Notes: generated from the sequence alone by a model not told the origin. Positions 1-38,135 are shown, counted from the stretch's first letter. The stretch is DNA of 64,000 nucleotides from Candidatus Moraniibacteriota bacterium (GCA_963743885.1 CAVURJ010000001.1:140949-204948), one strand, 5' to 3'. Numbers and translations: made by a program.

Positions 1-1644
1 GAGCAGGGTGGGCTCAAAGTGACAACGACGCTTGATTGGGATAAGCAACAGATCGCTGAGCAGGCGGTGCGCGAGGGTGCTGAGAAAAATAAGAAATGGA
101 AGGCGGCGAACGCAGCGCTGGTCGCGGCCGACCCAAAGACAGGACAGATCCTCGCGATGGTCGGGTCTAAGGATTATTTCGGGGCGCTTGAGCCGGCGGG
201 CTGCGTCGCGGGGAAGTCCTGCGCCTTCGAGCCGAATGTTAATGTCGCGGTCTCAGACCAGCAGCCGGGGTCATCCTTCAAGCCGTATGTCTACCTGACG
301 GCGTTTACAAAGGGGTATCTGCCGGAGACGATGCTCTATGATACCGAGACTGACTTCGAGACGGCGGAAGGGAAGAGCTACCGCCCGAATAATTATGATG
401 GCAAGTTCCATGGGCCGATCCCAATGATGAAGGCGCTTGGTGGATCGCTCAACGTGCCAGCAGTGAAGACGTTGTATCTGGTCGGTGTGAACGATGCGGT
501 CGAGGTAGCGCATAGCCTCGGCATCACGGGGATCAGGGATCCTGATCGCGTGGGCCTCTCGCTCGTTTTGGGTGGCGGCGAGGTGAAATTGACGGACCAT
601 GTGAATGCCTACGGGACGCTCGCTCAGGGTGGTATACGGCATGATCAAGTGGTGATTCTCAGGATTGAGGACCCGAAGGGGAATGTGCTTGAGGAGTACA
701 AACCATCCGCGGGCGAGCGCGTCATCGAAGAGAAGTATGTTGCGATGCTCGACTCTGTCATGTCGAACAATGAGAACCGAGCCTGGGTCTTCGGTGAACA
801 GAATCCACTCCGTTTCGATAGCCGGCAGGTGGCGGCTAAGACTGGTACGACGAATGAATTCCGCGATGGGTGGACGATTGGTTATACGCCATCCTTGGCG
901 GTTGGTGTCTGGGCCGGCAATAATGATAATACGCCGATGGCACCTGGTGCGGACGGTGTGAATGTCGCGGCTCCGATTTGGCGCACGTTCCTTGATAAGG
1001 CACTCGCAAATTATGCGGTGGAAGAATTTCCGAAGTATGATCCGGAAAGCGAGATCGGTGACGATGAGGGCAAGACAGATAAGCCGATGCTTGCCGGAAA
1101 GCTCGAGGAGAAGGAGGATGTGAAGGTCTGTGAGATCCCGGGTAAGGATGATAAGTATTGCTTAGCGAACAAGTATTGCCGTGATAAGGACGTCGACAAG
1201 AAGGACTTCGTCAGCCCACATGATATCCTCTATTACGTGAACCGTGAAGATCCTCGCGGACCAGTGCCGGATAAGCCGGACAAGGATGCCCAGTATAAGA
1301 ATTGGGAAGAGGGAGTGAAGGGCTGGTATAAGAAGCAGAAGGGAGTTGTTGTCGCTGAGCCGCCCAAGGATGAATGCGATAAGGATGATTTCGAGGGGTA
1401 TCTTCCGAAAGTGAGCCTGACGGTTCCGGGGAGCACAGGGGCATCACTATCCCTGAGTGCCGACATCGATGCGCCGTACGGTACCAAGAGTGTGAAGTAT
1501 ACCGTTGATGGCAGTGATGCTGGTTCTGGCGGATCATACGACGTGTCAGGAAAGAATGGCTCGTCGGTTACAGTGAAAGTGGAGGTGGAGGATGAGAATG
1601 GCAACAAGGCCTCCGACCAGAAATCCGTCAGCGTGAGCTTCTAA
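1..1644 (+). CDS. Penicillin-binding protein 1A-type transpeptidase, C-terminal part (5' end outside window) with acidic/Lys-rich C-terminal extension
   Basis: ORF open to position 1; KTGTTNEFRDGWTIGYTPSLAVGVWAGNNDN (KTG box) typical of class A PBP transpeptidase domain. Confidence 0.8.
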   Translation, partial: EQGGLKVTTTLDWDKQQIAEQAVREGAEKNKKWKAANAALVAADPKTGQILAMVGSKDYFGALEPAGCVAGKSCAFEPNVNVAVSDQQPGSSFKPYVYLTAFTKGYLPETMLYDTETDFETAEGKSYRPNNYDGKFHGPIPMMKALGGSLNVPAVKTLYLVGVNDAVEVAHSLGITGIRDPDRVGLSLVLGGGEVKLTDHVNAYGTLAQGGIRHDQVVILRIEDPKGNVLEEYKPSAGERVIEEKYVAMLDSVMSNNENRAWVFGEQNPLRFDSRQVAAKTGTTNEFRDGWTIGYTPSLAVGVWAGNNDNTPMAPGADGVNVAAPIWRTFLDKALANYAVEEFPKYDPESEIGDDEGKTDKPMLAGKLEEKEDVKVCEIPGKDDKYCLANKYCRDKDVDKKDFVSPHDILYYVNREDPRGPVPDKPDKDAQYKNWEEGVKGWYKKQKGVVVAEPPKDECDKDDFEGYLPKVSLTVPGSTGASLSLSADIDAPYGTKSVKYTVDGSDAGSGGSYDVSGKNGSSVTVKVEVEDENGNKASDQKSVSVSF

Positions 1645-1684
1645 GAAAGCCAATTAAAAACCCGCCTTAATCAGGAGGGTTTTT

Positions 1685-3574
1685 TTAGTGTTCATTGCCA
1701 GCGGGGTCGCTTTTCGTATATTCTTCTCGCATACGTTTCCATATTTCTAATGACTGGTATTTCGGTTGCTGTATATCAGAAGGATTAAGAAACCCTGATT
1801 TCATAAGGAAGACAAGGGTATTGAGATCAGCCCCGAGGACGAAAGCATATTTTTCCAATCCGTGTCCTTTCAGTTTTTGGAAAAGCCTGACCTGCTCGAG
1901 ATAGACGGTATCTTTACTGTTTGAGAGAGAGGCCTCTTGAGAAGAGAAGTCAGCTCCCTCGCGGAAGAGCCTTTTTGTTCGATTGATTGCTAATTTGAGA
2001 TTCTTCTCAGCTTGTTTTTTGAAATCTTCATCTGAGAGGCTGCCGATGGCCCGCTGCAGACGCGGCCCTTTCAGCGTGCTCTCATAGAAGGCCTCGAGAC
2101 ATTCGGCGTAGTTCCCACCTTCGAGCTTTTTCACCATGGCCCGGATGTAATGAGGATGGGTGGGGGAAGAATACCCGAAGGCTTGGCGAGAAACAGCATC
2201 TTGGTTGCTCATGGCGCCACATTCAGCGAAGATGTCTGTGCGGCCACTCCCAAGCTTCTTGAATAGCCGGAGAGGGATTTTCGATTTGTTTTCGTGTTGG
2301 AGGACATGTCCCTCAATTTCGTGTGCGAGAGTCACTGGTATGAGGGTAGCTGCGGATTGATTTTTTTTACTACAATGAACCACCTTTTGTTTACCGTTGA
2401 CGGACATGGTCTTAGATGTATCGCTTGCGATGAATTGCCATTTGCCGTCAGGTGCTGATCCAGTTCTGTCTGGGGAATAACTTTCAGCGGAGTGCTCGCT
2501 GAGCAATCCGTATGAGTTGAGGACTTCCTGAGCGAGACTCTCCACTTGCGCTATGGGGGTGGTTTCTGAGAAGAGTTTTTCCTGATCTAGTCCGGCAGCC
2601 TCTATCTGCTCGCGCCGCAGCACGAGGCTGGACACGTATTCGCCCTCAAATTCTTCGGCGAATCGGATCAGGTCAGTATCGACTTGCTTTCTCTGTTGAT
2701 CAGGCCCGTAGCCCGGGGCGGCACCGTTGATGAATTTGTCGTAGCGAGAAAGGTTTTTTTCGGGGGCTTCGGTGCCGGAAACGAGTTTGAGTATCGAGAC
2801 TTCATCTTCGGAGAGGGAGGTACCCCCGAGGCTTTTCCGTTTCTGTTCAATCGCGAAAGCGGCAGAGGCATTGTCGGCGAGCATATGGTTTACCCGGACG
2901 CGGTATATGCCGATGATGCCGGAGAGTACGGTTCTGAACGACGCGCTTTTCTTTGCAAGCTCCGATTCAAGTGATTCTTCGTAGTTGCGAAGTTGCGTTT
3001 TGAATTGCCTCAATGCGGAGAGTTTGGCAAGCGTTTTTTCCGGCGTCAATTGGATCTTGGCGATGACCGGGTTGTCCGAGGTCTCCGTTCGGATACTGCC
3101 GTCGGCGAGCATGGATGCAGAGATCTTCTCGAATAGCCTCTGTTCGCTCCAATCACGGGAGCGCCCACAAAGATCACTTCGTTTTTTGGAATCGATCTCC
3201 GCGAGAACTGGCGTCGCGGTGTAGAGGGCACGCAGAACATTTTCTGTGGAGGAGCCGTCTGATTCGAATGACCTCCCGACGACCGCTTCGAAGTCGGCAC
3301 GACCTTCATCACTAGAAAGATAATCGACGTAGAGCGAGGCTGTTTTGTGGGTGATTTCGAAGACCTTTTCAAGCGTTGATCCGAGAGCATCCTCGAGCGC
3401 GCTGATTTCCTTGCGCTCTTCGGGCGAAAGAGGGATTTTTTCAGCTTTGCCGGATTCAAAATCAGCGAGCTGTCGGAGCTTGCTTTCTATGTCGGATGAC
3501 GGACGCTCAGGGTAGAGCGGCCGACGGATGGGCTCGTGATCGGCGGTACCGGTGGTTTTTTCGATGATTTCCAT
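1685..3574 (-). CDS. Large conserved hypothetical protein (629 aa) with HEIEGH motif; possible metallopeptidase-like partner of ATP-grasp ligases
   Basis: Long ORF with GC3-rich codon usage, co-directional with upstream ATP-grasp genes; LAHEIEGHVLQHEN motif; no canonical HExxH. Confidence 0.55.
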   Translation of the reverse strand: MEIIEKTTGTADHEPIRRPLYPERPSSDIESKLRQLADFESGKAEKIPLSPEERKEISALEDALGSTLEKVFEITHKTASLYVDYLSSDEGRADFEAVVGRSFESDGSSTENVLRALYTATPVLAEIDSKKRSDLCGRSRDWSEQRLFEKISASMLADGSIRTETSDNPVIAKIQLTPEKTLAKLSALRQFKTQLRNYEESLESELAKKSASFRTVLSGIIGIYRVRVNHMLADNASAAFAIEQKRKSLGGTSLSEDEVSILKLVSGTEAPEKNLSRYDKFINGAAPGYGPDQQRKQVDTDLIRFAEEFEGEYVSSLVLRREQIEAAGLDQEKLFSETTPIAQVESLAQEVLNSYGLLSEHSAESYSPDRTGSAPDGKWQFIASDTSKTMSVNGKQKVVHCSKKNQSAATLIPVTLAHEIEGHVLQHENKSKIPLRLFKKLGSGRTDIFAECGAMSNQDAVSRQAFGYSSPTHPHYIRAMVKKLEGGNYAECLEAFYESTLKGPRLQRAIGSLSDEDFKKQAEKNLKLAINRTKRLFREGADFSSQEASLSNSKDTVYLEQVRLFQKLKGHGLEKYAFVLGADLNTLVFLMKSGFLNPSDIQQPKYQSLEIWKRMREEYTKSDPAGNEH

Positions 3575-3651
3575 AGGCTTCTTTCAGTATAGATGATAGA
3601 AACAAAAAGAGAAGCCGACGAGGCTTCTCTTTTCTAGCTATGGTCACGCGG

Positions 3652-4647
3652 CTAGCCTCTCTTCAACGACGGGAAAACGCTTTTCAAGAGGAGGAGTGAG
3701 ACGTCGGTGCCCCTGCCTTCCACGAGCGGTTTTTCGTTCATGTTGTAGAACGGATGAGGATTGATCTCGAGGATCACATAAGGAGCCTTCGGAGAAGCGA
3801 TGTTTTCAGCGAGGAAGTCGAGGCCGCCGTAGGTGAGGCCTACAGCCTCCATAGCTGCTACCGCCGCCTTCTTGAGAGATGGATGCATTTCTCTCGTCGT
3901 GTCGATTGCTCTGCCGCCATCGGACATGTTGAGATTGTTCCTGAATTTGAAGAAGTGACCTTTTTTAAGGATGGAGTCGAGCGTCAAGCCCGCCTCTTTA
4001 AGGGACGCATTCGCCGTATCGTCAAGCTTGATTTCGAATCCCTTGAGACGATTCTTATTGAAGGCCTTGATGAGCTTATTAATGGAGGTCTTCCCATCTC
4101 CAGTGACCCCAGCAGGAATCTTCTGCACGCAGGAGATGACTTTCCCACCAAATACGAGTACGCGGTATTCGTTCCCGACGAACATCTCTTCGACGATGAT
4201 GGATATATTCTTCCGTTTCCCGTAAGCGATGAGGGCGTGTTGGGTAGCCGCGCGGAGCTCTTTTTCAGAGCGGATGTTCCAAGTGACGCCTTTGGCGAGC
4301 GACCCATCAAGCGGCTTCGCGATGAGCGGGTAGCGGAGCTTGGCAGATCGGACTTCACGGATGGCTTCAGTATGCGACCGGGCAGTGATGCCGCGCGGTG
4401 TGCTGATGCCAATCTCTGTGAGGACAGCTTTTGTCAACGTCTTGCGTTTCGTGAAATTCCCCATATTCCTCTTGATGGGGAGGTTGTTCTTGTAGCAGAA
4501 AACAGTTTTCCCTTTGTAGGAGAGCTTGGTGAAGCGGATATCTCCATCGTGCATCACGGAGACGGAGATTCCGAGTTCGACGGCTTTTTTGAGGAAAGAG
4601 CGGAAGCCGCCGTGCTTGATCGCCTTGATGTATTCGTTCATGTCCAT
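3652..4647 (-). CDS. ATP-grasp family ligase (RimK/cyanophycin-synthetase-N-like)
   Basis: 331 aa; ATP-grasp hallmarks (IAKPLDGSLAKGV, EEMFVGNEYRVLVFGGKV, LDFLAENIASPKAPYVILEINPHP); 6-bp gap to next gene. Confidence 0.65.
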   Translation of the reverse strand: MDMNEYIKAIKHGGFRSFLKKAVELGISVSVMHDGDIRFTKLSYKGKTVFCYKNNLPIKRNMGNFTKRKTLTKAVLTEIGISTPRGITARSHTEAIREVRSAKLRYPLIAKPLDGSLAKGVTWNIRSEKELRAATQHALIAYGKRKNISIIVEEMFVGNEYRVLVFGGKVISCVQKIPAGVTGDGKTSINKLIKAFNKNRLKGFEIKLDDTANASLKEAGLTLDSILKKGHFFKFRNNLNMSDGGRAIDTTREMHPSLKKAAVAAMEAVGLTYGGLDFLAENIASPKAPYVILEINPHPFYNMNEKPLVEGRGTDVSLLLLKSVFPSLKRG

Positions 4648-4653
4648 ATGCGG

Positions 4654-6054
4654 CTAGATTGATTTATTAACGTCGATGAGGAACTTCCTGAGATGCTTTC
4701 GTCCGATGATAGCTCGGTATTCGAGGTGCGACCGATCGATGACGGAGACTTTGGCGGGAATAGCGAAGGTGTCGATGATGAGCGAAACGAGCACTTTTGG
4801 CCTATAGGATGTGCCGTGCGAGGATTTTACGGGGACGGTATCCGCAAGATCTGGAATGCCGGCAAAGAGTGATTCACGCTCTAACTTTGACATCTCAGTC
4901 ATGATGTCACGGCCGCCGATCTTTTCCTCGAATGTTCGTATTGCTTCTCCGAAACCGAGTTCGCGGGCGAGTTCGGTATCGATGGAAGTGGAGTCGGCGC
5001 CGGTGTCGATCTTGGCTTCAACTTCGATCTCTTTGCCGCCCTTGCCGATGAGCTTCACTTTCTCAACAGCACCGATGACGCGCTTGCCGGAGAGTTCCTC
5101 GACCGCCTCTTCGATCTCACCACCGAAGAGGTTTTGGCCGACGCGGATGCCACGATCAGTGGTCTTGATCTTGAGCCCGGCGACGCGATCGAGCCGGCCG
5201 CGGAGGCCGGAGAGGTTGGCCAGCTGGATGGAGAGGCCTGGGCGAGCGTTGAGCTCGAGGATGACCGGGCCACGCTCGCGGTCGATGGCGATGTCAGCAC
5301 CGAGGAAGCCAAGTCCTGAAAGATTCTGTGACTCGACGGACATGCGGAGGATCTCTTTCCAATAAGGGATGCGAATGCCGGAGAGGGCGAGGCGGGCGCC
5401 AGGGACGTACTCGATGATGTTGCCCTTGCCGAGGATGGCGGTCGTCGTCGTGCCGGTCGCGAGGTCGATGCCGACGCCGATAGCTCCCTGCTGGAGGTTG
5501 GCCTTGCCGTCGGAAGCGCGGGTCGGGAGGCGGAGCATCGCCATGACCGGGACGCGGTTGAAGACGATGACACGGATATCAGGAATGCCTTTGTAGGCGT
5601 AGGGCTTGAAGAGTTTGAGGAGCGTGAGCCGCTCTTCAAAGAAGGCAATATCAGGGATATTGGAAAGCGAGAAGGACCCGTCGAGGATGTTTTGGATATG
5701 CGTCTTCAAGTCCTCGATGGTGATGATGGAACCGTCGGCCTTGACCCAGGCGTCGGGTCGGTTCTTCTTCCTCGCGTAGACGACCAGGATGCCTTCGCCG
5801 CCAAAGCCGCGGTTCGGCTTGAGGGCGAAGCTTGCCGGCAGGGCGGTCCAGTCGAAATGCTCGAGCTCTTCGCGGGTGCTGATTTTAGCGATGAGACCAG
5901 GCACACCCAAGCCAGCCTTCTTCAGGGTGCGCTTGGAGAAGAGCTTGTTGTCGGCGAGCTCTCGGCTCCGTTTGCGATTGAGCGGGCGCACGTAGTCGAG
6001 GTTGCGCGCGTTCATGCCGAGCACCGAGCGGCTTTTTCGGAAGAAATCGAACAT
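4654..6054 (-). CDS. Alpha-L-glutamate ligase-like (RimK-related) ATP-grasp protein fused to C-terminal retropepsin-like (DUF785/RimB-like) domain
   Basis: N-term VLGMNARNLDYV...LADNKL resembles the alpha-L-glutamate-ligase-related family; C-term EVEAKIDTGADSTSID has the D-T/S-G-A aspartic-protease signature. Confidence 0.7.
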   Translation of the reverse strand: MFDFFRKSRSVLGMNARNLDYVRPLNRKRSRELADNKLFSKRTLKKAGLGVPGLIAKISTREELEHFDWTALPASFALKPNRGFGGEGILVVYARKKNRPDAWVKADGSIITIEDLKTHIQNILDGSFSLSNIPDIAFFEERLTLLKLFKPYAYKGIPDIRVIVFNRVPVMAMLRLPTRASDGKANLQQGAIGVGIDLATGTTTTAILGKGNIIEYVPGARLALSGIRIPYWKEILRMSVESQNLSGLGFLGADIAIDRERGPVILELNARPGLSIQLANLSGLRGRLDRVAGLKIKTTDRGIRVGQNLFGGEIEEAVEELSGKRVIGAVEKVKLIGKGGKEIEVEAKIDTGADSTSIDTELARELGFGEAIRTFEEKIGGRDIMTEMSKLERESLFAGIPDLADTVPVKSSHGTSYRPKVLVSLIIDTFAIPAKVSVIDRSHLEYRAIIGRKHLRKFLIDVNKSI

Positions 6055-6096
6055 ACGATGTGGGAGCTGAAAAGAATGGACTGTAGGAAGATGCAG

Positions 6097-6756
6097 TTAC
6101 TGCATGTTGCGGAAGACCTTGCGGAAGCGCAGGTATTCTGAGAGACGGAGGCCCGTCCATTTGCCGAGCGAAAAGTTGACTGCGAAGGTGAGGAGGACAG
6201 CCCACGGGTATTCGAGAATGAGCGCAGTGAGTGCGTCCCAGCTGATGAGGAAGTATCCTGCGACGGAGATGATGAGTGTTTCGAGTGCGAGGAGCGAGGC
6301 GACTTTGTTGCCCTTCTCGATCTGGGTCGCGACAAATTTTTCCGCGAGCGTAATCATGATGAGGAGCGGGAAGATGTCGATGCCGGCGAGGCCGGTGCGA
6401 TGAAATGATCCGCCAACGACCAGGATGCCGAGGATGGAAAGCGAAACGATAGAGAGCGTGATGGCAACGCGCGGAAGATAGAGCAACCGGAAGTATTTCA
6501 GGATGTAGCGCGAGATCATGCCGACCAGGATGACCGAGAGGAAGATCGCGATGCCGTACTTGAGTCCGTTCGGGTCGAAGGCGATGAGCGCAAAGGTGAT
6601 GATGGACGGTGTGTAGATGCCGAAGGCCTTGATGCCGACGACCTGGCGGAAGAAAGCGACGAGCGTCGCGACGATCGGCAGCATGAGAAGGAGCGCGACC
6701 GTTTCGAGCGGCACACCCTGTTCGACGAAATAGGCGATGAGAGGATGGTATTGCAT
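6097..6756 (-). CDS. Polytopic membrane protein (6-7 TM), 7TM partner of ATP-grasp ligase operon
   Basis: 219 aa, almost entirely hydrophobic helices; first gene of co-directional operon. Confidence 0.6.
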   Translation of the reverse strand: MQYHPLIAYFVEQGVPLETVALLLMLPIVATLVAFFRQVVGIKAFGIYTPSIITFALIAFDPNGLKYGIAIFLSVILVGMISRYILKYFRLLYLPRVAITLSIVSLSILGILVVGGSFHRTGLAGIDIFPLLIMITLAEKFVATQIEKGNKVASLLALETLIISVAGYFLISWDALTALILEYPWAVLLTFAVNFSLGKWTGLRLSEYLRFRKVFRNMQ

Positions 6757-6842
6757 ACTACGAGAAAGTTATTCCGTTAACGAGTTCACGAGTTAACGGG
6801 TTGGATGATAGTTTTGAACGCGTGAACGCGTTAACTGGTCAA

Positions 6843-7331
6843 CTATTTTTTTATCAGTTCCATTTTTCGGCGGCTGGCGTGGCAGACGGCGAGTGCGAGA
6901 GCGTCGGCAGCATCGTCCGGCTTCGGGATGCTCGTGAGCTTCAGGATATTCTTGACCATGAGCTGTACTTGGGCCTTGTCGGCGCGGCCGTAATTGGTGA
7001 GTGCTTGTTTGACTTCTAATGGAGTGTAACCAGCTATTCTAACACCAAAACGCTCCAAAGTCAAGAGTATGACGCCGCGGGATTGAGCCACGGAGATGAC
7101 GGTTTTCTGGTTGTTATAGAAGAAGAGCTCCTCAACTGCTGCTTCTTCTGGCGAAAATTGCTTAATAAGGGCCTCGATATCGTTGGCTATTTCAGCCAGG
7201 CGCTTCTCGGCGGGAAGGTCTTTGGAGGTGGAAATATGCCCGAAACTGACGGAAGAGACTTTCCCCCCGTCTGATTCGATGACGCCCCAGCCGACCGTCG
7301 CCGTGCCGGGATCGATACCAAGAATCCTCAT
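6843..7331 (-). CDS. ruvC: Holliday junction resolvase RuvC
   Basis: MRILGIDPGTATVGWGVIE N-terminus, 162 aa. Confidence 0.9.
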   Translation of the reverse strand: MRILGIDPGTATVGWGVIESDGGKVSSVSFGHISTSKDLPAEKRLAEIANDIEALIKQFSPEEAAVEELFFYNNQKTVISVAQSRGVILLTLERFGVRIAGYTPLEVKQALTNYGRADKAQVQLMVKNILKLTSIPKPDDAADALALAVCHASRRKMELIKK

Positions 7332-7371
7332 GTTTTTGCTAGCAATCTGATGAAGCGAGCGTAGCTATAAG

Positions 7372-8088
7372 CTAGGCGAGGTTGTCCCACACGGTCTGGA
7401 CGTCCTGGTGGTCTTCGAGGATTTCTTTGAGCTTCTCGTAGCTTTCGAGATCCTTGTCGTTCAGGGAGACCGTCTGTGTCGGCATATAGCCGAGCTCGGC
7501 GGATTCTGGAGCGATGTCTTTACCTTCGAAGTAAGCGCGGACAGCCTGGAGATCTTCCGGCTTGGTGATGACGAGGAAAACCTCTTCTTCGACGCGGAAG
7601 TCATCAGCCCCGGATTCGATCGTCTCCATCTCGAGCGTTTCGGCGGAGTGTTTGTCGAGCGAGAAGACGATGATGCCACATCGATGGAACATGAAAGAGA
7701 CAGACCCGGACGGAACGAACTTACCGTTGTTCTTCGTGAGAAGTGACTTCACTTCGCTGACGGTTCGGTTCTTGTTGTCGGTCAGTCCTTCGATAAGGAG
7801 TGCGACCTGGCCGGGGCCGTAAGCTTCGTAGACGACCTCTTCGAACTGTGCGCCATCTTTGCCCTCACCACTGCCGGCCTTGATGGCGCGCTCGATATTG
7901 TCTTTGGGCATGTTGTAGCTCCGGGCGTTGTCGATCGCGAGGCGAAGTTTGAAGTTCATCTCGGGGTCAGCCCCTTCGCGCGCGGCGATAGTGATGAGCC
8001 GGCCGAATTTGGTGAAGACGGCGGCGCGTTTGTTATCCTGTGCTTCTTTACGGTGCTTGATTCCGGACCACTTGTTATGTCCTGACAT
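7372..8088 (-). CDS. yebC: YebC/PmpR family DNA-binding regulator
   Basis: MSGHNKWSGIKHRKEAQDNKR...AIKAGSG signature; 238 aa. Confidence 0.9.
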   Translation of the reverse strand: MSGHNKWSGIKHRKEAQDNKRAAVFTKFGRLITIAAREGADPEMNFKLRLAIDNARSYNMPKDNIERAIKAGSGEGKDGAQFEEVVYEAYGPGQVALLIEGLTDNKNRTVSEVKSLLTKNNGKFVPSGSVSFMFHRCGIIVFSLDKHSAETLEMETIESGADDFRVEEEVFLVITKPEDLQAVRAYFEGKDIAPESAELGYMPTQTVSLNDKDLESYEKLKEILEDHQDVQTVWDNLA

Positions 8089-8310
8089 AGTATTATATCG
8101 TCTCGGCTGTCTGGCGCATTCCTTTGCCAGAACCTTACGGTGCGCGACACCGTATCCTACGGATACGCCTTACGGCGCTCCGCGGTTCTTTCGTGGACTG
8201 CATCCAGCCAACCAAGGCTCGGATTCCTGGAGATAATCGGTACTTTTTCGCTCTGTAACGAAGGAATTCTAGCCGGGAAAACAGAAAAAATCAACCCCTG
8301 CCAATAAGTA

Positions 8311-8877
8311 TCAAGCTTGATCTTTGATGGTGGCGACGGCGGCGCGTAGGTCGTGCTGACCGCGGTCGCGTGCGAGCTTGATCACCATGTCTTTGATGCT
8401 GTACGGATCGCCGACTTGTCGGAAGACGAAGCGTTCCGTCTCGGCGGCTGTCTGGATATAGACATCGCCGTAATTGAGTATGGTTGGGAGAATGCCTTTT
8501 ACCTCAGTTGTGACATCCTGTACCTGAGCGAGATTGAGCTCGCTCATGTGTCGGACGAAGAGGCCTTTCTGTTCGATATTGACGATGCGTTCGGTCGTGA
8601 CGACCCAGACGTCGAAGTAGTAATCGACCCAGATGAGGAAGGCATAGATCCAGACGAAGAGAAGGAGCGTGTTCTGCATGAACGAGAAGGCTCGGTAGTT
8701 ATTCGGATCGAGTGTTTCAGGAAAGATGACTGGAAGGGTGAGGAAACTTCCCGCGATGAGGAACGCGAAGGTGATGACGGCAAGGAAGTGTGAGAGCAGG
8801 TTGAACCAGTGGCGATGGATAATCCGGATCACCTCTTCGTCCTCATGCTGGCCGCGGAAATGGTAACTCTGGGACAT
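8311..8877 (-). CDS. Membrane protein with bacterial PH (bPH_2/YdbS-like) domain
   Basis: Two N-terminal TM helices followed by a PH-like region (GDVYIQTAAETERFVFRQVGDP). Confidence 0.5.
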   Translation of the reverse strand: MSQSYHFRGQHEDEEVIRIIHRHWFNLLSHFLAVITFAFLIAGSFLTLPVIFPETLDPNNYRAFSFMQNTLLLFVWIYAFLIWVDYYFDVWVVTTERIVNIEQKGLFVRHMSELNLAQVQDVTTEVKGILPTILNYGDVYIQTAAETERFVFRQVGDPYSIKDMVIKLARDRGQHDLRAAVATIKDQA

Positions 8878-8879
8878 AT

Positions 8880-9098
8880 TTAGAAATGCTTCGGGAGGAG
8901 CGAATCGAGCGGGAGCGAGAAGAAGAGCGCCATGTTCGAGAGGAGCAGTGTGATGAAGACTGAGAGGAAGAGTGTCAGCCCGAAGATCATCGCGGTCCGG
9001 CTCATGGAGTAGCGGACGATATGGAACGCGATGAAGAGCGCCGCCATGATGTAGCTGAAGAAGAGGATGAGGTAGAGCGATCCGAAGAGCGATTTCAT
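8880..9098 (-). CDS. Small 2-TM membrane protein
   Basis: 72 aa hydrophobic ORF ending 3 bp before next gene. Confidence 0.4.
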   Translation of the reverse strand: MKSLFGSLYLILFFSYIMAALFIAFHIVRYSMSRTAMIFGLTLFLSVFITLLLSNMALFFSLPLDSLLPKHF

Positions 9099-9160
9099 GT
9101 GTGTATGTGTTTCAGAGTGCCTTCATTCTACCATTTCGCGCACTTGATCCAAAGGCCCAG

Positions 9161-10174
9161 CTAGACCAGCTTGTCCTGGTGGTTCTCGGGGACATCGAGG
9201 CCGAGGTGCTGGTAGGCTTCCGGTGTGACGACGCGGCCGCGCGGGGTGCGGGCGAGGAAGCCGAGCTGGATGAGGTACGGCTCGTAGACGTCCTCGATCG
9301 TCTGGATCTCTTCACCGGCGACAGCGGCAATCGCCTGGATGCCAGCCGGTCCTCCGCGGAATTTCTTCATGATGCTTTCAAGGATATGCCTATCAGTCGG
9401 TTCGAGGCCGAGGCGGTCGATCTCATAGAGCGCGAGCGCTTCGCGAGCCGTCTCTTCATTGATGATGGCGATGTCCTTGATCTCCGCGTAGTCGCGGACG
9501 CGTTTGAGGATTCTATTGGCGACGCGCGGTGTCTGGCGGCTAGAATGAGCGATCGCGCTCGCTCCGGATGGGTCGATGCCGATGCCCAGGATGCGGGCGG
9601 AACGAGTGACGATCCTCTCGATTTCTTCTGGCGTGTAGAATTCGAGCCGGTGAGTGGAGCCGAAGCGGTTGCGGAGCGGGTTGGAGAGCGATCCGAGTCG
9701 GGTTGTGGCGCCGATTAGAGTGAAATGGGGCAGATCGAGCTGGATAGTGCGCGCGGCCGGGCCCTTTCCGATGATGATATCGAGCTTGTAGTCCTCCATG
9801 GCTGGGTAGAGGACCTCCTCAATCTGCTTGTTGAGGCGGTGGATCTCATCGATGAAGAGGACGTCACCGTCGTCGAGATTGGTGAGGATGGACCCGAGGT
9901 CTCCGACACGCTCGATGGCGGGGCCTGAGGTGACCTTGATGCTCACGCCCATCTCTTTAGCGATGATATTAGCGAGCGTGGTCTTACCGAGGCCAGCCGG
10001 CCCGTAGAGGAGGACATGATCAATGCTTTCCTCGCGCTTCTTGGCGGCGCGAATCACGATATCGAGGTTGCGCTTGATCTTTTCTTGGCCGACATAGTCG
10101 GTGAAGCACTGTGGCCGGAGCGTGATATCGAGCGTCTGCTCATCGAGTGGCGCTCCTTCGGCTGAATTTATCAT
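9161..10174 (-). CDS. ruvB: Holliday junction branch migration helicase RuvB
   Basis: [17 protein letters not shown] Walker A, RuvB-type AAA+ fold, 337 aa. Confidence 0.92.
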
Positions 10175-10403
10175 ACTAGTGGCTTGAATAAGGGAAGAAA
10201 TACTATGGCAGTCATCTTATTTTACCACCTCTTGACCCCGGTTACAAATTCAGAGAAAGATGTTTGTAATCGGGTATTTGAAGGCGAAGCCGTCTATCGG
10301 CTCAGCTGGGAGAATGTCTGGATTTCGGCCTAATTTGTAACGGGGTTGACAAAAAAACAAAGCCATGCTATCATCCAAAGTCGCTTTACAAAGAATTTAT
10401 GTT

Positions 10404-10446
10404 CCCGGCCCGCCCGCAACGCTTCGCGTAGCGATGCGGGCGGGGC
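10404..10446. repeat. GC-rich palindromic element copy A (CCCGCCCG-loop-GCGGGCGGG family)
   Basis: cccgcccgcaacgcttcgcgtagcgatgcgggcggg; homologous copies at 15398, 18216, 33190, 35541, 52163. Confidence 0.7.
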
Positions 10447-10636
10447 TGTCTCACATGTAGACAATTGGGGATTACTATCTTTTGTCCTCAATCATGGGGA
10501 TGGGCGGGCCTTCGGGTTCCCTAGTCAAGATCGGGTAGGGTGGTTCCGGCTGCGCTACACCTCGACACCATTCCTTTTCTCGGGCTCCTATGTCTGGGAT
10601 TTGTCTACAGCTGAGACAGTGACATAAGCGAACAAA

Positions 10637-10672
10637 AAGAGGCCCATCCGCCAGCCGGCGGAGGGCCTCTTT
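10637..10672. terminator. Bidirectional rho-independent terminator
   Basis: agaggccc-[ccgccagccggcgg]-gggcctct hairpin flanked by A/T runs; 3' of gspE-like gene. Confidence 0.6.
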
Positions 10673-10695
10673 TGCTTTGCCTGTGGAATGATTGG

Positions 10696-13600
10696 TCAGA
10701 GATTCGCGACGCGACGGACTTCGTCGAGTGACGTTTTGCCTTCGATGACCGAGAGTATGCCGTCCTGTGCGATGGTGATCATGCCGTTCTCGATGGCCTT
10801 CTCTTCAATCTCATGAGTGAGCGCTCCGCGGGCGATGAGGTCTTTGATGGTATTGTCGATAGGGATGGTTTCCGAAAGGACGAGCTGCCCCGCATGACCG
10901 GTTCCATTGCAATTCTGGCAACCGGCACCACTCCAGATTTTTAGTGCGTCCTTTGGTAGGGTATCAACGTGTTCCGGCGAGAGCGCAGAGAGGACTTTTG
11001 AGATGATGGCGTGTTCCTCATCGGTCGGTTTTCTCGGTTGTTTGCACTTCTCGCAGAGCCTACGGACGAGGCGCTGTGCGATGAGGAGACCACCGGCATT
11101 AGCGATATCATCACCGGAGATGCCCATTTTCATGAGGCGCGATATGGCTCCGGCAGCAGAATTGGCATGGAGTGTTGAGAGTACGAGGTGGCCGGTATTG
11201 GCGGCTTGTATAGCGATGCGCGCTGTATCATCGTCGCGGATTTCGCCTACCATGAGAACATCTGGGTTCTGACGGAGCAAGGCACTGAGAGCGGTTGAGA
11301 AAGTGTATCCTTCAGCTTCGTTTATCTGGGTCTGTAGAATGCCAGGCATCTGGTATTCGATCGGATCTTCGACGGTGATGATTTTCGTCTCTGGTTTATT
11401 AAGGAGTGCAAGCGTTCCGTAGAGCGTCGTTGTCTTTCCGGATCCTGTCGGTCCGGTATTGAGAATGATGCCGTTTGGAGCATGAATTGCGGAAAGAATC
11501 CTTTTCAAGTTTTGCGATCGGAGAGCGAGGTTTTCAAGGTTGAGCGCGGCATTTGATTGGTTCAGAAGGCGTATAACTGCGGTTTCGCCAAAACCTCCGA
11601 GTATGAGAGAAAGTCGAACATTGATTATTTTGTCCGGCGCGCCATCGGGTTGTTCAATAGCAATAGAGAAACGTTTATCGGTAATTCCGGCGCGCTCGCT
11701 TGTCTTGAGGCCCACTAGGTTCTTGATGTCATTGATAAAGCTCGGATATTCGTTGAGCGGGAAGCGTGCGATCGTTTGAAGCATGCCGTCTATGCGGAGC
11801 CTAATGGAAAAATCTTTGTCGGAGGGTTCGATATGGATGTCGCCAGCATGCATATGTATTGCCGCAGCGAAAACGATCTGTAATCTCGTTTTGGATTCTG
11901 AGTGCAAAACGTATTCCTCGAATACCTGGAAAGAAGAGAGGTGTCGCGCTGTTTCGGTGACGATATCGGATGGAATGAACGATGAGCGCGAAAGGTCGCT
12001 CGACATCAAATCGAGGTAGATATTTTTCAGCATATCAGATTGGTCGGTGACGCGGGAAATCTCCTCAAGTGTTGTGATTCCATCGAGCATCTTTAAGATG
12101 CCATCCTGAGTCATGGTGACCATGCCGTTTTCGAGAGCTGCACGAAAGAGCTCCTGTTCAGTTCCGAGATTTTCGATAATCTTGATGATATCCGGCGTCA
12201 TGGCGAAGACCTCAAAAATTCCGATGCGGCCTTTGTATCCCGTAAAATGACAATTTGGGCATCCAGATGCTTTCCAGAGAACCCGCACCTCTTTCGGAAG
12301 CACGATTTTTGCTTTGGGGGATATGATAGTGATGAGGCGGATGATGGAGTCGATAGTTCCTTTCGCTGGTTCGTATGATTGTTTGCATTGGTCGCAGAGT
12401 TTGCGGACGAGCCGTTGCGCGATAAGGACGTTGACTGAGGCAGCAAGGACCGAGGGCTTCACTCCGAGTTCGATAAATCTTGGGATGGCGCCAGGGGCAC
12501 TGTTGGCGTGGAGCGTCGACATGACGAGGTGGCCGGTGAGTGCGGCGTTGACAGCAATATCAGCCGTTTCGTCGTCTCGAATCTCGCCGATAAGAATGAT
12601 GTCCGGGTCTTGACGGACGATAGCTCGGAGCGCCGAAGCGAAAGTATAGGATTTGTCTTTTGAGACTTCAGTCTGTACGATGCCAGGAAGCGAATATTCG
12701 ATCGGATCTTCGACGGTGATGATCTTAGCCCCTGGCTGGTTGATGATATTGAGGAGAGTGTAGAGCGTCGTTGTCTTTCCGGATCCTGTCGGCCCGGTAT
12801 TGAGCACCATGCCGTTCGGCTTTTCAATCTGGCGGAGCACTTCCTCGCGGGCGAGCCCTCGCAGCCCGAGCGAGTCGATATCGACGATGACATCTTCGCC
12901 TGATAGAAGGCGCATATTTATGCTTTCCCCGTATTTTCCAGGGATGATGTTGACGCGGACATCGATGCGTTTTTGGTCGAGCGTGATGAAAAAGTGACCG
13001 TCTTGGGCTTTATCGCGGATATTGAGCCGCATTTTTCCGATCATTTTGATGCGGGAGATGAGTTGCCGGTAGACCGCCTGAGAAAGCGACCCGATATTTT
13101 GGAGTACGCCATCGACGCGATAACGGAGGCGTACAGTATCTTCTTCTGGCTCGAGGTGGATATCGCTTGCGTCGAGCTTTCTGGCGCCAGCAAGAACGAC
13201 CTCGATGGAATGCGAAGTGGTTGATGGCCGATTTTCTTTCAGGCTGATGAGTTCACCGAAATCCTTTTCGAATTGCTCAAGGTCATTGCCTTTGAGCGAG
13301 ACGCGGACGAGGTCAAGGCTATCGCTGACCGATTGTTTTGTATAAGCTTCCCAGGCGCTTTCAATGGATGGTTTTGAGACGACGTAGAGCTCTCGGCCGA
13401 ATCCTTTTTTCTCTACGAACGTATCGATATAGGAAAGCGCTTCTTGGTTTGCTGGGTCGGTAATCGCAAAGAGTGCCTGTAAGCCTTTCTTTTGGAAAAG
13501 GATAAAGCCGAGGCGTCGAGCGTCCGCCTCCGGGATAAGCAGGGCCTCTTCCGGTTCGACAGGAAAAAGACTGAGGTCTATATATGGGAGGCCGCATGAG

Positions 13601-13719
13601 GCGGCGAAACGAGCGGTAGTTTCCTCAATGGAGACCTCCTTCATCTTCTGTAGGAGCTCCTCTGTCTTCCCTGTTTTTTCATCAGGAAGCTGGCTGCTCT
13701 GATGGGTGACTTTCACCAT
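10696..13719 (-). CDS. Tandem-duplicated GspE/PilB-family secretion ATPase (two complete ATPase cores in one 1007-aa polypeptide)
   Basis: Two Walker A boxes (LNTGPTGSGKTTTLYTL and ILNTGPTGSGKTTTLYGTL), two tetracysteine motifs (CDQCKQ...GCPNCHFTG; CEKCKQ...GCQNCNGTG), N-terminal GSPII_E_N-like domain. Confidence 0.8.
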   Translation of the reverse strand: MVKVTHQSSQLPDEKTGKTEELLQKMKEVSIEETTARFAASCGLPYIDLSLFPVEPEEALLIPEADARRLGFILFQKKGLQALFAITDPANQEALSYIDTFVEKKGFGRELYVVSKPSIESAWEAYTKQSVSDSLDLVRVSLKGNDLEQFEKDFGELISLKENRPSTTSHSIEVVLAGARKLDASDIHLEPEEDTVRLRYRVDGVLQNIGSLSQAVYRQLISRIKMIGKMRLNIRDKAQDGHFFITLDQKRIDVRVNIIPGKYGESINMRLLSGEDVIVDIDSLGLRGLAREEVLRQIEKPNGMVLNTGPTGSGKTTTLYTLLNIINQPGAKIITVEDPIEYSLPGIVQTEVSKDKSYTFASALRAIVRQDPDIILIGEIRDDETADIAVNAALTGHLVMSTLHANSAPGAIPRFIELGVKPSVLAASVNVLIAQRLVRKLCDQCKQSYEPAKGTIDSIIRLITIISPKAKIVLPKEVRVLWKASGCPNCHFTGYKGRIGIFEVFAMTPDIIKIIENLGTEQELFRAALENGMVTMTQDGILKMLDGITTLEEISRVTDQSDMLKNIYLDLMSSDLSRSSFIPSDIVTETARHLSSFQVFEEYVLHSESKTRLQIVFAAAIHMHAGDIHIEPSDKDFSIRLRIDGMLQTIARFPLNEYPSFINDIKNLVGLKTSERAGITDKRFSIAIEQPDGAPDKIINVRLSLILGGFGETAVIRLLNQSNAALNLENLALRSQNLKRILSAIHAPNGIILNTGPTGSGKTTTLYGTLALLNKPETKIITVEDPIEYQMPGILQTQINEAEGYTFSTALSALLRQNPDVLMVGEIRDDDTARIAIQAANTGHLVLSTLHANSAAGAISRLMKMGISGDDIANAGGLLIAQRLVRRLCEKCKQPRKPTDEEHAIISKVLSALSPEHVDTLPKDALKIWSGAGCQNCNGTGHAGQLVLSETIPIDNTIKDLIARGALTHEIEEKAIENGMITIAQDGILSVIEGKTSLDEVRRVANL

Positions 13720-38048: not shown

Positions 38049-38135
38049 GGAAAGGTGGCCGAGTGGTTGAAGGTACTTGCTTGGAAAGCAAGCGTAGGGG
38101 AAACCCTACCGAGGGTTCGAATCCCTCCCTTTCCG
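38049..38135 (+). tRNA. tRNA-Ser (anticodon GGA), long variable arm, no encoded CCA
   Basis: GGAAAGG/CCTTTCC acceptor, GCCGAGTGGTTGAAGG D-arm, anticodon loop ttGGAaa, GAGGGTTCGAATCCCTC T-arm. Confidence 0.85.

Follow-up and report, generated by a model that had tools for sequence, protein, structure and literature searches.

A predicted Rlo/Rim-type ligase and peptidase gene cluster in a Moranbacteria genome

Organisation of the cluster

Four co-directional genes on the minus strand at positions 1685-6756 of a 64,000-nt stretch of DNA from Candidatus Moraniibacteriota bacterium (GCA_963743885.1, CAVURJ010000001.1:140949-204948), here called the window, may well form a Moranbacteria variant of the Rlo/Rim family of alpha-glutamate ligases and peptidases. 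The best hits of all the proteins likewise point to a Moranbacterium. Coordinates count from the first letter of the window, and the genes are numbered 1-4 in minus-strand order (Table 1). An earlier reading, made from the sequence alone (the sequence-only reading), had described a four-gene operon with gaps of 40, 6 and 77 bp. All four open reading frames (ORFs) are present where it had placed them, and its second and third gaps are correct (6 nt for genes 2/3, 77 nt for genes 3/4), but the first spacer, between genes 1 and 2, measures 42 nt.

The gene 3/gene 4 spacer holds a hairpin with a T-run after the stem, and a hairpin of different sequence, also with a T-run, is found at the same position in a related locus (L009; related loci carry numbers of this form). 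Since a terminator-like hairpin precedes gene 4, a single four-gene transcript is doubtful. Another hairpin, with an A-run on one side and a T-run on the other, resembles a bidirectional terminator; it separates gene 4 from the convergent gene of a class A penicillin-binding protein (PBP). Transmembrane (TM) segments, signal peptides and hydrophobic N-termini are absent from the products of genes 2, 3 and 4, and all chemistry of the cluster is therefore placed in the cytoplasm.

Table 1. Features of the cluster and its immediate surroundings in window coordinates (7TM, seven-transmembrane).
Feature	Coordinates	Strand	Length	Description
Gene 1	6097-6756	-	219 aa	Stand-alone RloB-type 7TM membrane protein
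Gene 2	4654-6054	-	466 aa	ATP-grasp ligase fused to C-terminal retropepsin-like domain
Gene 2, N-terminal part	5176..6036	-		RloC-type ATP-grasp ligase ('alpha-L-glutamate ligase-like'), residues ~7-293
Gene 2, C-terminal part	4663..5091	-		RloA/RimB-type retropepsin-like aspartic peptidase domain, residues ~322-464
Gene 3	3652-4647	-	331 aa	Stand-alone accessory ATP-grasp ligase
Terminator-like hairpin	3604..3634	-		13-bp stem, then TTTTTGTTT; in the gene 3/gene 4 spacer
Gene 4	1685-3574	-	629 aa	Putative cytoplasmic long-form MATCAP/DUF1704-like HExxxH zinc (carboxy)peptidase
HEIEGH motif of gene 4	2306..2323	-		H418, E419, H423
Hairpin between the convergent 3' ends of gene 4 and the PBP gene	1645..1684	.		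Sequence read directly: AAAAACCCTCCTGATTAAGGCGGGTTTTT
Class A PBP, C-terminal part	19..1644	+		Conserved neighbour of the cluster

Protein families and known relatives

Two characterised systems provide the frame for comparison. The rloABC operon of Pseudomonas aeruginosa encodes a trio of 7TM protein, ATP-grasp ligase and retropepsin (Lormand et al., 2025, mBio; PMC12239564). Its RloA proteases are retropepsins that are secreted and cut runs of at least eight Glu, and loss of all three of them results in hypo-osmotic lethality and in defects in cell shape, biofilm formation and antibiotic tolerance (PMC12239564). In P. aeruginosa, deletion of rloB or rloC suppresses the defects of the rloA1-3 mutant (PMC12239564), and the three components therefore belong to one pathway, in which RloB and RloC act before RloA, and RloA removes the resulting product. 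In the Rim system, polyglutamylated S6 is cut by RimB, which also stimulates RimK in making poly-alpha-Glu (Little et al., 2025, JBC; PMC11957791). RimB-RimK hybrids (RimBK), reported mainly in Flavobacteriales and Rhodobacterales, are single polypeptides with the peptidase at the N-terminus and are proteolytically active (PMC11957791).

Gene 1 was recognised as a 7TM protein in the sequence-only reading, and this is borne out by a match to Pfam 7TM_transglut (E 1.4e-27) and by seven predicted helices, corresponding to about seven hydrophobic stretches. The protein covers only positions 306-506 of the 508 in the NCBIfam RloB model, and a 508-aa 'inactive transglutaminase family protein' encoded on a Legionella plasmid aligns with it through residues 310-501 (28% identity, E 2e-19). 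The N-terminal inactive transglutaminase domain of RloB is thus missing from gene 1 by the Pfam, NCBIfam and Legionella comparisons alike. Across 120 Moranbacteria clusters, gene 1 proteins are 74-96% identical.

Colinear motifs (GIxxxGxxxP, LYxxR and QxxKG) can be seen by eye in gene 1 and in CapC/PgsC sequences (L031, L032, L034). A relationship of gene 1 to CapC/PgsC, the membrane subunit of poly-gamma-glutamate synthase, was not supported by hhalign in three set-ups (E 0.08-0.5, probability <1%), which used shallow alignments and of which the last was weakened by a mistranslated CapC-side sequence (L033); Pfam CapC was matched by no 7TM member.

Profile searches confirm the earlier assignment of genes 2 and 3 to the ATP-grasp families. 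Residues 7-293 of gene 2 match TIGR02291 with E 6.2e-86 and 288 bits (model positions 8-291 of 317; just under the curated cutoff of 314) and ATPgrasp_ST with E 2.3e-66, and this part is 42% identical (E 4e-76) to the Legionella RloC-type protein encoded in a canonical three-gene operon. The score against the RimK-family model TIGR00768 is 42.6 bits, compared with a cutoff of 143.4, and the ligase is accordingly not RimK-type. The retropepsin-like domain proposed earlier for the gene 2 C-terminus is also upheld: residues 327-464 match Pfam Zn_protease/RimB-like (E 2.4e-7), and the domain matches the NCBIfam RloA3, RloA2 and RloA models as well. The motif KIDTGADSTSID occupies residues 348-359, and the putative catalytic D350 lies within AKIDTGA.

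Full-length gene 2 had no match among PDB sequences. Searched by itself, its C-terminal domain matched retropepsin-like chains over the full length, although weakly, and chain 9g58_A (deposited as 'Putative ATP-dependent zinc protease domain-containing protein') can be aligned with it from end to end. In this alignment K348, D350, R418 and R441 of gene 2 fall on positions 26, 28, 94 and 117. The chain appears to be P. aeruginosa RloA minus about 20 N-terminal residues, in which case these positions would be K46, D48, R114 and R137, the catalytic Asp and residues needed for cleavage or binding of polyglutamate (PMC12239564). Among 12 diverged fusion proteins, D350, R418 and R441 never vary, and K348 is conserved in 11, with Arg in the remaining one. 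At the sequence level, gene 2 carries both the catalytic Asp and the basic polyglutamate-binding positions of the retropepsin-like domain.

Genes 1 and 2 therefore resemble rloABC in that the three protein families occur together in one cluster, in the similarity of ligase and 7TM region to the Legionella copies, and in the DTG motif and polyglutamate-binding positions of the retropepsin. Several features set them apart. RloA is a secreted, stand-alone protease with a signal peptide, whereas the window retropepsin is fused behind a cytoplasmic ligase and has neither signal peptide nor TM segment; the 7TM protein is without the inactive transglutaminase domain of RloB, which comprises about 300 aa; and an extra ATP-grasp ligase and a MATCAP-like peptidase are added. 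RloB was reported to be 96% proteobacterial (PMC12239564), whereas the window locus belongs to Patescibacteria. With RimBK the fusion shares the physical coupling of a cytoplasmic ATP-grasp ligase to a retropepsin-like domain, but the order in gene 2 is ligase (7-293) then peptidase (322-464) instead of peptidase then ligase. In addition, the gene 2 ligase appears to be RloC-type, and Rim has no 7TM partner.

The canonical rlo-type operon used in these comparisons lies on Legionella adelaidensis plasmid NZ_LR134414 (L035, 2993-5921) and is followed by two C1 peptidase genes. It encodes a 152-aa retropepsin ('RimK/LysX family protein'), the 508-aa inactive transglutaminase protein and a 314-aa ligase. 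The Legionella retropepsin appears to begin at the first beta-strand, i.e., without a signal peptide. Another RloC-type ligase relative, 35% identical (tblastn E 7e-38), is encoded in an unannotated stretch of the Halobacterium sp. DL1 plasmid CP007061 (L036, 106170-107009), where it adjoins transposase genes.

Gene 3 matches RimK-type ATP-grasp profiles, with a score against TIGR00768 of 54.2 bits, below the cutoff of 143.4. Against the NCBIfam cyanophycin synthetase model it aligns to the G-domain region (positions 213-474 of 871; E 1e-55, 189 bits, cutoff 877), and against CphA1 structures in the PDB to residues 220-481 (E 1e-34). Further matches are to the C-terminal domain of GshAB (E 4e-45) and to the ATP-grasp part of N-acetylglutaminylglutamine synthetase (Ngg; E 2e-38). 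Because all these scores are far below the cutoffs of the full-length models, gene 3 is regarded as a stand-alone domain. The alignment with CphA1 spans its entire ATP-grasp domain, which attaches an amino acid to a C-terminal alpha-carboxylate. The N-G-M architecture of cyanophycin synthetase is reduced in gene 3 to the G-domain region, and, unlike CphA1, GshAB and Ngg, gene 3 has no CphA N domain, Mur-ligase-like M domain, GshA module or GNAT domain. To judge from sequence, it is most like the backbone-elongating G domain of CphA, the C-terminal domain of GshAB and the ATP-grasp part of Ngg.

The nearest known family to gene 4 is MATCAP/TMCP (KIAA0895L, PF08014; in bacteria 'QEGLA motif proteins'). 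MATCAP/TMCP enzymes are HExxxH/EEG carboxypeptidases that take Tyr and Glu off tubulin tails and also make polyglutamate chains shorter (PMC10499314). The HEIEGH motif of gene 4 occupies residues 418-423, and H-E-x-x-x-H is invariant in 35 homologues. E451, which lies in the motif FAECGAM and is the putative third zinc ligand, is at least 90% conserved in the 35 homologues and invariant in 16 closer ones. Pfam MATCAP (PF08014, formerly DUF1704) is matched by 3 of the 35 family members, two of them passing the gathering score (at least 27 bits), which the window protein itself does not reach. The gene 4 family profile aligns to a 455-aa PF08014 member (probability 96.3%, E 1.7e-9, 291 columns), which itself scores 65.6 bits against PF08014 and has HExxxH, EEG and SKDxxY in register with the gene 4 family. 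Based on the conserved motif, the Pfam matches within the family and this profile alignment, the protein is called a MATCAP relative. The zinc motif with its downstream Glu, and likewise homology and fold, agree with MATCAP, and the support is indirect but consistent for a divergent long-form relative of MATCAP/DUF1704 zinc carboxypeptidases, in keeping with the sequence-only reading, which had listed DUF1704 among the models to search. At its N-terminus gene 4 carries a further, helical domain of about 370 aa. When the 35-sequence alignment was used as a profile against the PDB, only noise was returned. The 77 close homologues are all from Patescibacteria, mostly Moranbacteria, and an exhaustive profile search found 593 clusters (50% identity) at E <= 0.001.

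Conservation in related loci

Synteny in other Patescibacteria, by which the sequence-only reading had proposed to check the cluster, is conserved. The order RuvB, bPH_2, YebC, RuvC, 7TM protein, fusion, accessory ATP-grasp(s), optional MATCAP-like gene and class A PBP is found in L001, L009, L010, L018, L020, L021, L025, L027, L028, L029 and L030. In L003 and L016 the cluster lies in another neighbourhood with no PBP gene nearby. Genes 1 and 2 lie side by side in each of the related loci examined, and the cluster order is kept in relatives in which gene 4 identity is as low as 28%.

The genes following the fusion are variable. One CphA-G-like ligase is present before the MATCAP-like (or PBP) gene in the window, L009 and L028, and one RimK-like ligase before the PBP gene in L030. 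Between the fusion and the MATCAP-like gene there are two RimK-like ligases in L001, L010 and L029, three ligases in L003, L018 and L025, one CphA-G-like ligase with a GNAT gene in L021 and L027, one ligase with a YdjC gene in L020, and, in L016, unrelated genes in place of accessory ligases. The GNAT acetyltransferase genes (L021, 9258-9722; L027, 9452-9955) lie between the gene 3 orthologue and the MATCAP-like gene and recall the GNAT plus ATP-grasp make-up of N-acetylglutaminylglutamine synthetase; the YdjC-like gene of L020 takes the same place.

In well over 100 Moranbacteria clusters the identity of the 7TM and fusion proteins is about 75-96%, a sign of strong constraint; gene 4 is about 50% identical in these lineages. 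The long form of gene 4 is present in the window and ten related loci, and in L029 its slot is taken by a canonical PF08014 MATCAP protein on the opposite strand. From this pattern of identity and presence, the conserved core consists of genes 1 and 2 with at least one extra ligase, and gene 4 is a frequent accessory. The four-gene operon of the sequence-only reading was thus too strong: genes 1-3 are indeed tightly spaced, but gene 4 stands behind a hairpin, is absent from two loci and is often solitary.

The PBP gene of the window matches the Transgly plus Transpeptidase genes that come after the cluster in 11 related loci (E 1e-150 to 1e-270); it is directly after the cluster in nine of these and a few kb off in L018 and L025. 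It is convergent with the cluster in the window and co-directional in all 11 relatives. On the other side, ruvC adjacency is conserved equally well, and adjacency to the PBP gene is therefore weak evidence of a functional link.

Proposed function and alternatives

The families, motifs, fusion, cytoplasmic location and synteny described above are established, and with modest confidence the locus is assigned to a Moranbacteria variant of the Rlo/Rim alpha-glutamate ligase-peptidase family that works by the mechanism below. The logic of ligation plus removal, which the sequence-only reading had likened to RimK/RimB, is a fair reading of the gene content. Those relatives of the four soluble modules that have been characterised all make or cleave acidic chains with alpha linkages, and an acidic-peptide mechanism is therefore proposed; within it, which amino acids are used, what the acceptor is, what the 7TM protein does and what purpose the system serves in the cell are inferred. 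In the first step, the RloC-type ligase would polymerise L-glutamate or a similar acidic residue, alpha-linked, at the cytoplasmic face of the membrane. A residue of another kind, serving as primer or cap, would be attached at the C-terminal carboxylate by the accessory ligase; the one to three accessory ligases of the relatives suggest a lineage-specific peptide composition. The fused retropepsin, presumably dimeric like other retropepsins, would cut long acidic runs internally and so limit, and possibly stimulate, synthesis, as RimB does on RimK. Residues at the C-terminus would be trimmed by the MATCAP-like enzyme in the way that TMCP/MATCAP acts on Glu-rich tubulin tails, and the 7TM partner would link either the product or the enzymes to the membrane, through export or anchoring. 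The acceptor or product may be a free peptide or a protein C-terminus, and by analogy with Rlo the physiological role would be envelope or osmotic homeostasis.

Several points weigh against this assignment. The AlphaFold2 model of gene 1 is poor (pLDDT 57.6), and the choice between coupling, export and anchoring for the 7TM protein is conjectural. The gene 2 score against TIGR02291 (288 bits) is below the curated cutoff of 314, and to our knowledge no product, substrate or activity is known for any RloC-type ligase, the Glu specificity being extrapolated from RimK and from the specificity of the peptidases. Gene 4 alone gave no match in Pfam (even at E 10), NCBIfam or PDB sequences and nothing significant with Foldseek against the PDB. 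It is missing from the otherwise identical loci L028 and L030, and its homologues stand alone in roughly half of the loci, 8 of about 15 GTDB loci with enough flank carrying the cluster. With the terminator-like hairpin in front of gene 4, these absences and solitary homologues make the link between gene 4 and the ligases frequent but facultative. No convincing acceptor was found when acidic C-terminal tails or polyglutamate runs were sought among the ORFs of the 64-kb window.

Protein tagging is a possible but unlikely explanation in which the ligases add a Glu-rich tail to a specific protein C-terminus, as RimK does on S6, and the peptidases shorten or remove it, to give a reversible mark. 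The best-studied relatives, RimK/RimB and TTL(L)/MATCAP, do act on protein C-termini, all soluble components of the cluster are cytoplasmic, and polyglutamylated proteins were kept as possible RloA substrates by the authors of the Rlo study (PMC12239564). However, no acidic C-terminal tail was seen among the ORFs of the 64-kb window, the gene 2 ligase appears to be RloC-type and is not RimK-type by its TIGR00768 score, and modification of soluble proteins leaves the obligate 7TM partner unexplained. No substrate was found for the peptide tagging that the sequence-only reading had named as a candidate.

A bolder form of the Rlo/Rim assignment, which is put forward as rather improbable, makes the 7TM protein and self-editing fusion a membrane-coupled acidic alpha-peptide synthase (for a surface polymer or envelope tail) that would be near-essential in Moranbacteria. 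The pairing of ATP-grasp ligases with MATCAP-like carboxypeptidases that recurs in bacteria would then be a prokaryotic counterpart, and possibly a precursor, of the cycle of tubulin-tail tyrosination/glutamylation and removal.

A role in cell-wall peptide chemistry has a low probability. Here the ATP-grasp enzymes would extend the stem peptide or cross-bridge of peptidoglycan precursors by amino acids, the peptidases would edit the result, and the cluster would act in concert with the class A PBP next to it. The PBP gene near the cluster in the window and 11 related loci speaks for such a role, as do the beta-lactam sensitivity and altered cell shape of P. aeruginosa Rlo mutants and the presence of the Vibrio cholerae orthologues within the VxrAB cell-wall-damage regulon (PMC12239564), and the variable number of ligases may recall cross-bridge diversity. 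The sequence-only reading was right about the adjacency of the PBP gene, but with the ruvC side equally conserved it may be the plain synteny of small genomes, and L003 and L016 carry the cluster without a nearby PBP. Moreover, Ddl or Mur-associated families are the best match of none of the ligases, and the retropepsin appears to retain polyglutamate-binding positions rather than those for D-amino-acid peptides.

Equally doubtful is the proposal that two independent modules are neighbours, genes 1 and 2 being Rlo-like and genes 3 and 4 a synthase and hydrolase of a small, osmolyte-like peptide of the NAGGN type. It draws on the resemblance of gene 3 to the ATP-grasp part of Ngg, on the GNAT genes of L021 and L027, on the hairpin upstream of gene 4 and on the solitary gene 4 homologues. 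In Photobacterium, an ATP-grasp 'GshB' and a QEGLA/DUF1704 protein occur on consecutive locus tags and are induced 38- and 27-fold at low salinity, with rimK induced 52-fold (PMC10308900); the pair counts towards the Rlo/Rim assignment as well, and no Rlo genes are stated alongside it. Against two modules, the accessory ligases are always between the fusion and the MATCAP-like gene across 28-55% gene 4 identity, and the window has no GNAT gene. Gene 3 belongs with genes 1 and 2 and not with gene 4: it precedes the hairpin and is separated from gene 2 by just 6 nt.

Protease-containing multi-enzyme clusters are common in defence islands, which counted for a role in anti-phage defence or as mobile-element cargo, but this is effectively refuted: PADLOC models were matched by none of the four proteins, plasmid homologues of gene 4 were not found, the locus lies in a stable housekeeping block (RuvB, YebC, RuvC and PBP, with DnaN and DnaA in relatives) in many genomes, and the core genes are 75-96% conserved.

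The sequence-only reading called the cluster undescribed in genomes of the Candidate Phyla Radiation type, and no paper on such a version was found in the literature searched. The system does have precedents, its kind being already known from rloABC (PMC12239564) and from RimBK hybrids (PMC11957791), both reported in 2025. New are the phylum, the ligase-then-peptidase fusion, the loss of the transglutaminase domain and of protease secretion, and the modular extra ligases and MATCAP-like peptidase.

Rlo still lacks a known biochemical product, although in Pseudomonas it influences cell shape, the formation of biofilms and tolerance to antibiotics. In Patescibacteria the system is pared down, a natural experiment with no periplasmic transglutaminase domain, no secreted protease, and ligase and peptidase on one chain. 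That the core pair is nevertheless about 75-96% conserved in genomes of about 1 Mb points to the 7TM-ligase pair as the ancient functional core, and the window cluster offers simple soluble proteins for finding the Rlo product. Rlo-type systems are extended well beyond Proteobacteria, and a bacterial MATCAP-family peptidase beside ATP-grasp ligases provides a testable hypothesis for the uncharacterised DUF1704/QEGLA proteins.

Further features of the surroundings were recorded. The spacer between ruvC and gene 1 (6757-6842, 86 nt) contains a palindrome, CCGTTAAC-N10-GTTAACGG, repeated CGTTCA/GTTAAC words and a weak promoter-like site at 6834..6805; comparison with five related loci showed no conserved non-coding element in it. 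Upstream, a housekeeping block that Moranbacteria conserve (6843-13719, minus strand) encodes a 1007-aa double T2SSE/PilB-like ATPase, RuvB, a bPH_2 protein, YebC and RuvC. In L028-L030 the block of cluster and PBP gene is followed by DciA, DnaN and DnaA, and the locus is therefore near the replication origin in those relatives. The only Rfam match in the window is a tRNA gene at 38049-38135 (+). Several metagenome-assembled genomes from GTDB or TPA with the Moranbacteria-type locus (L008-L010, L013, L015, L017, L018, L025, L026) carry other taxon labels ('uncultured Bdellovibrionales', 'Micavibrio sp.', 'Pseudobdellovibrionaceae', 'Saccharibacteria') and are probably mislabelled bins.

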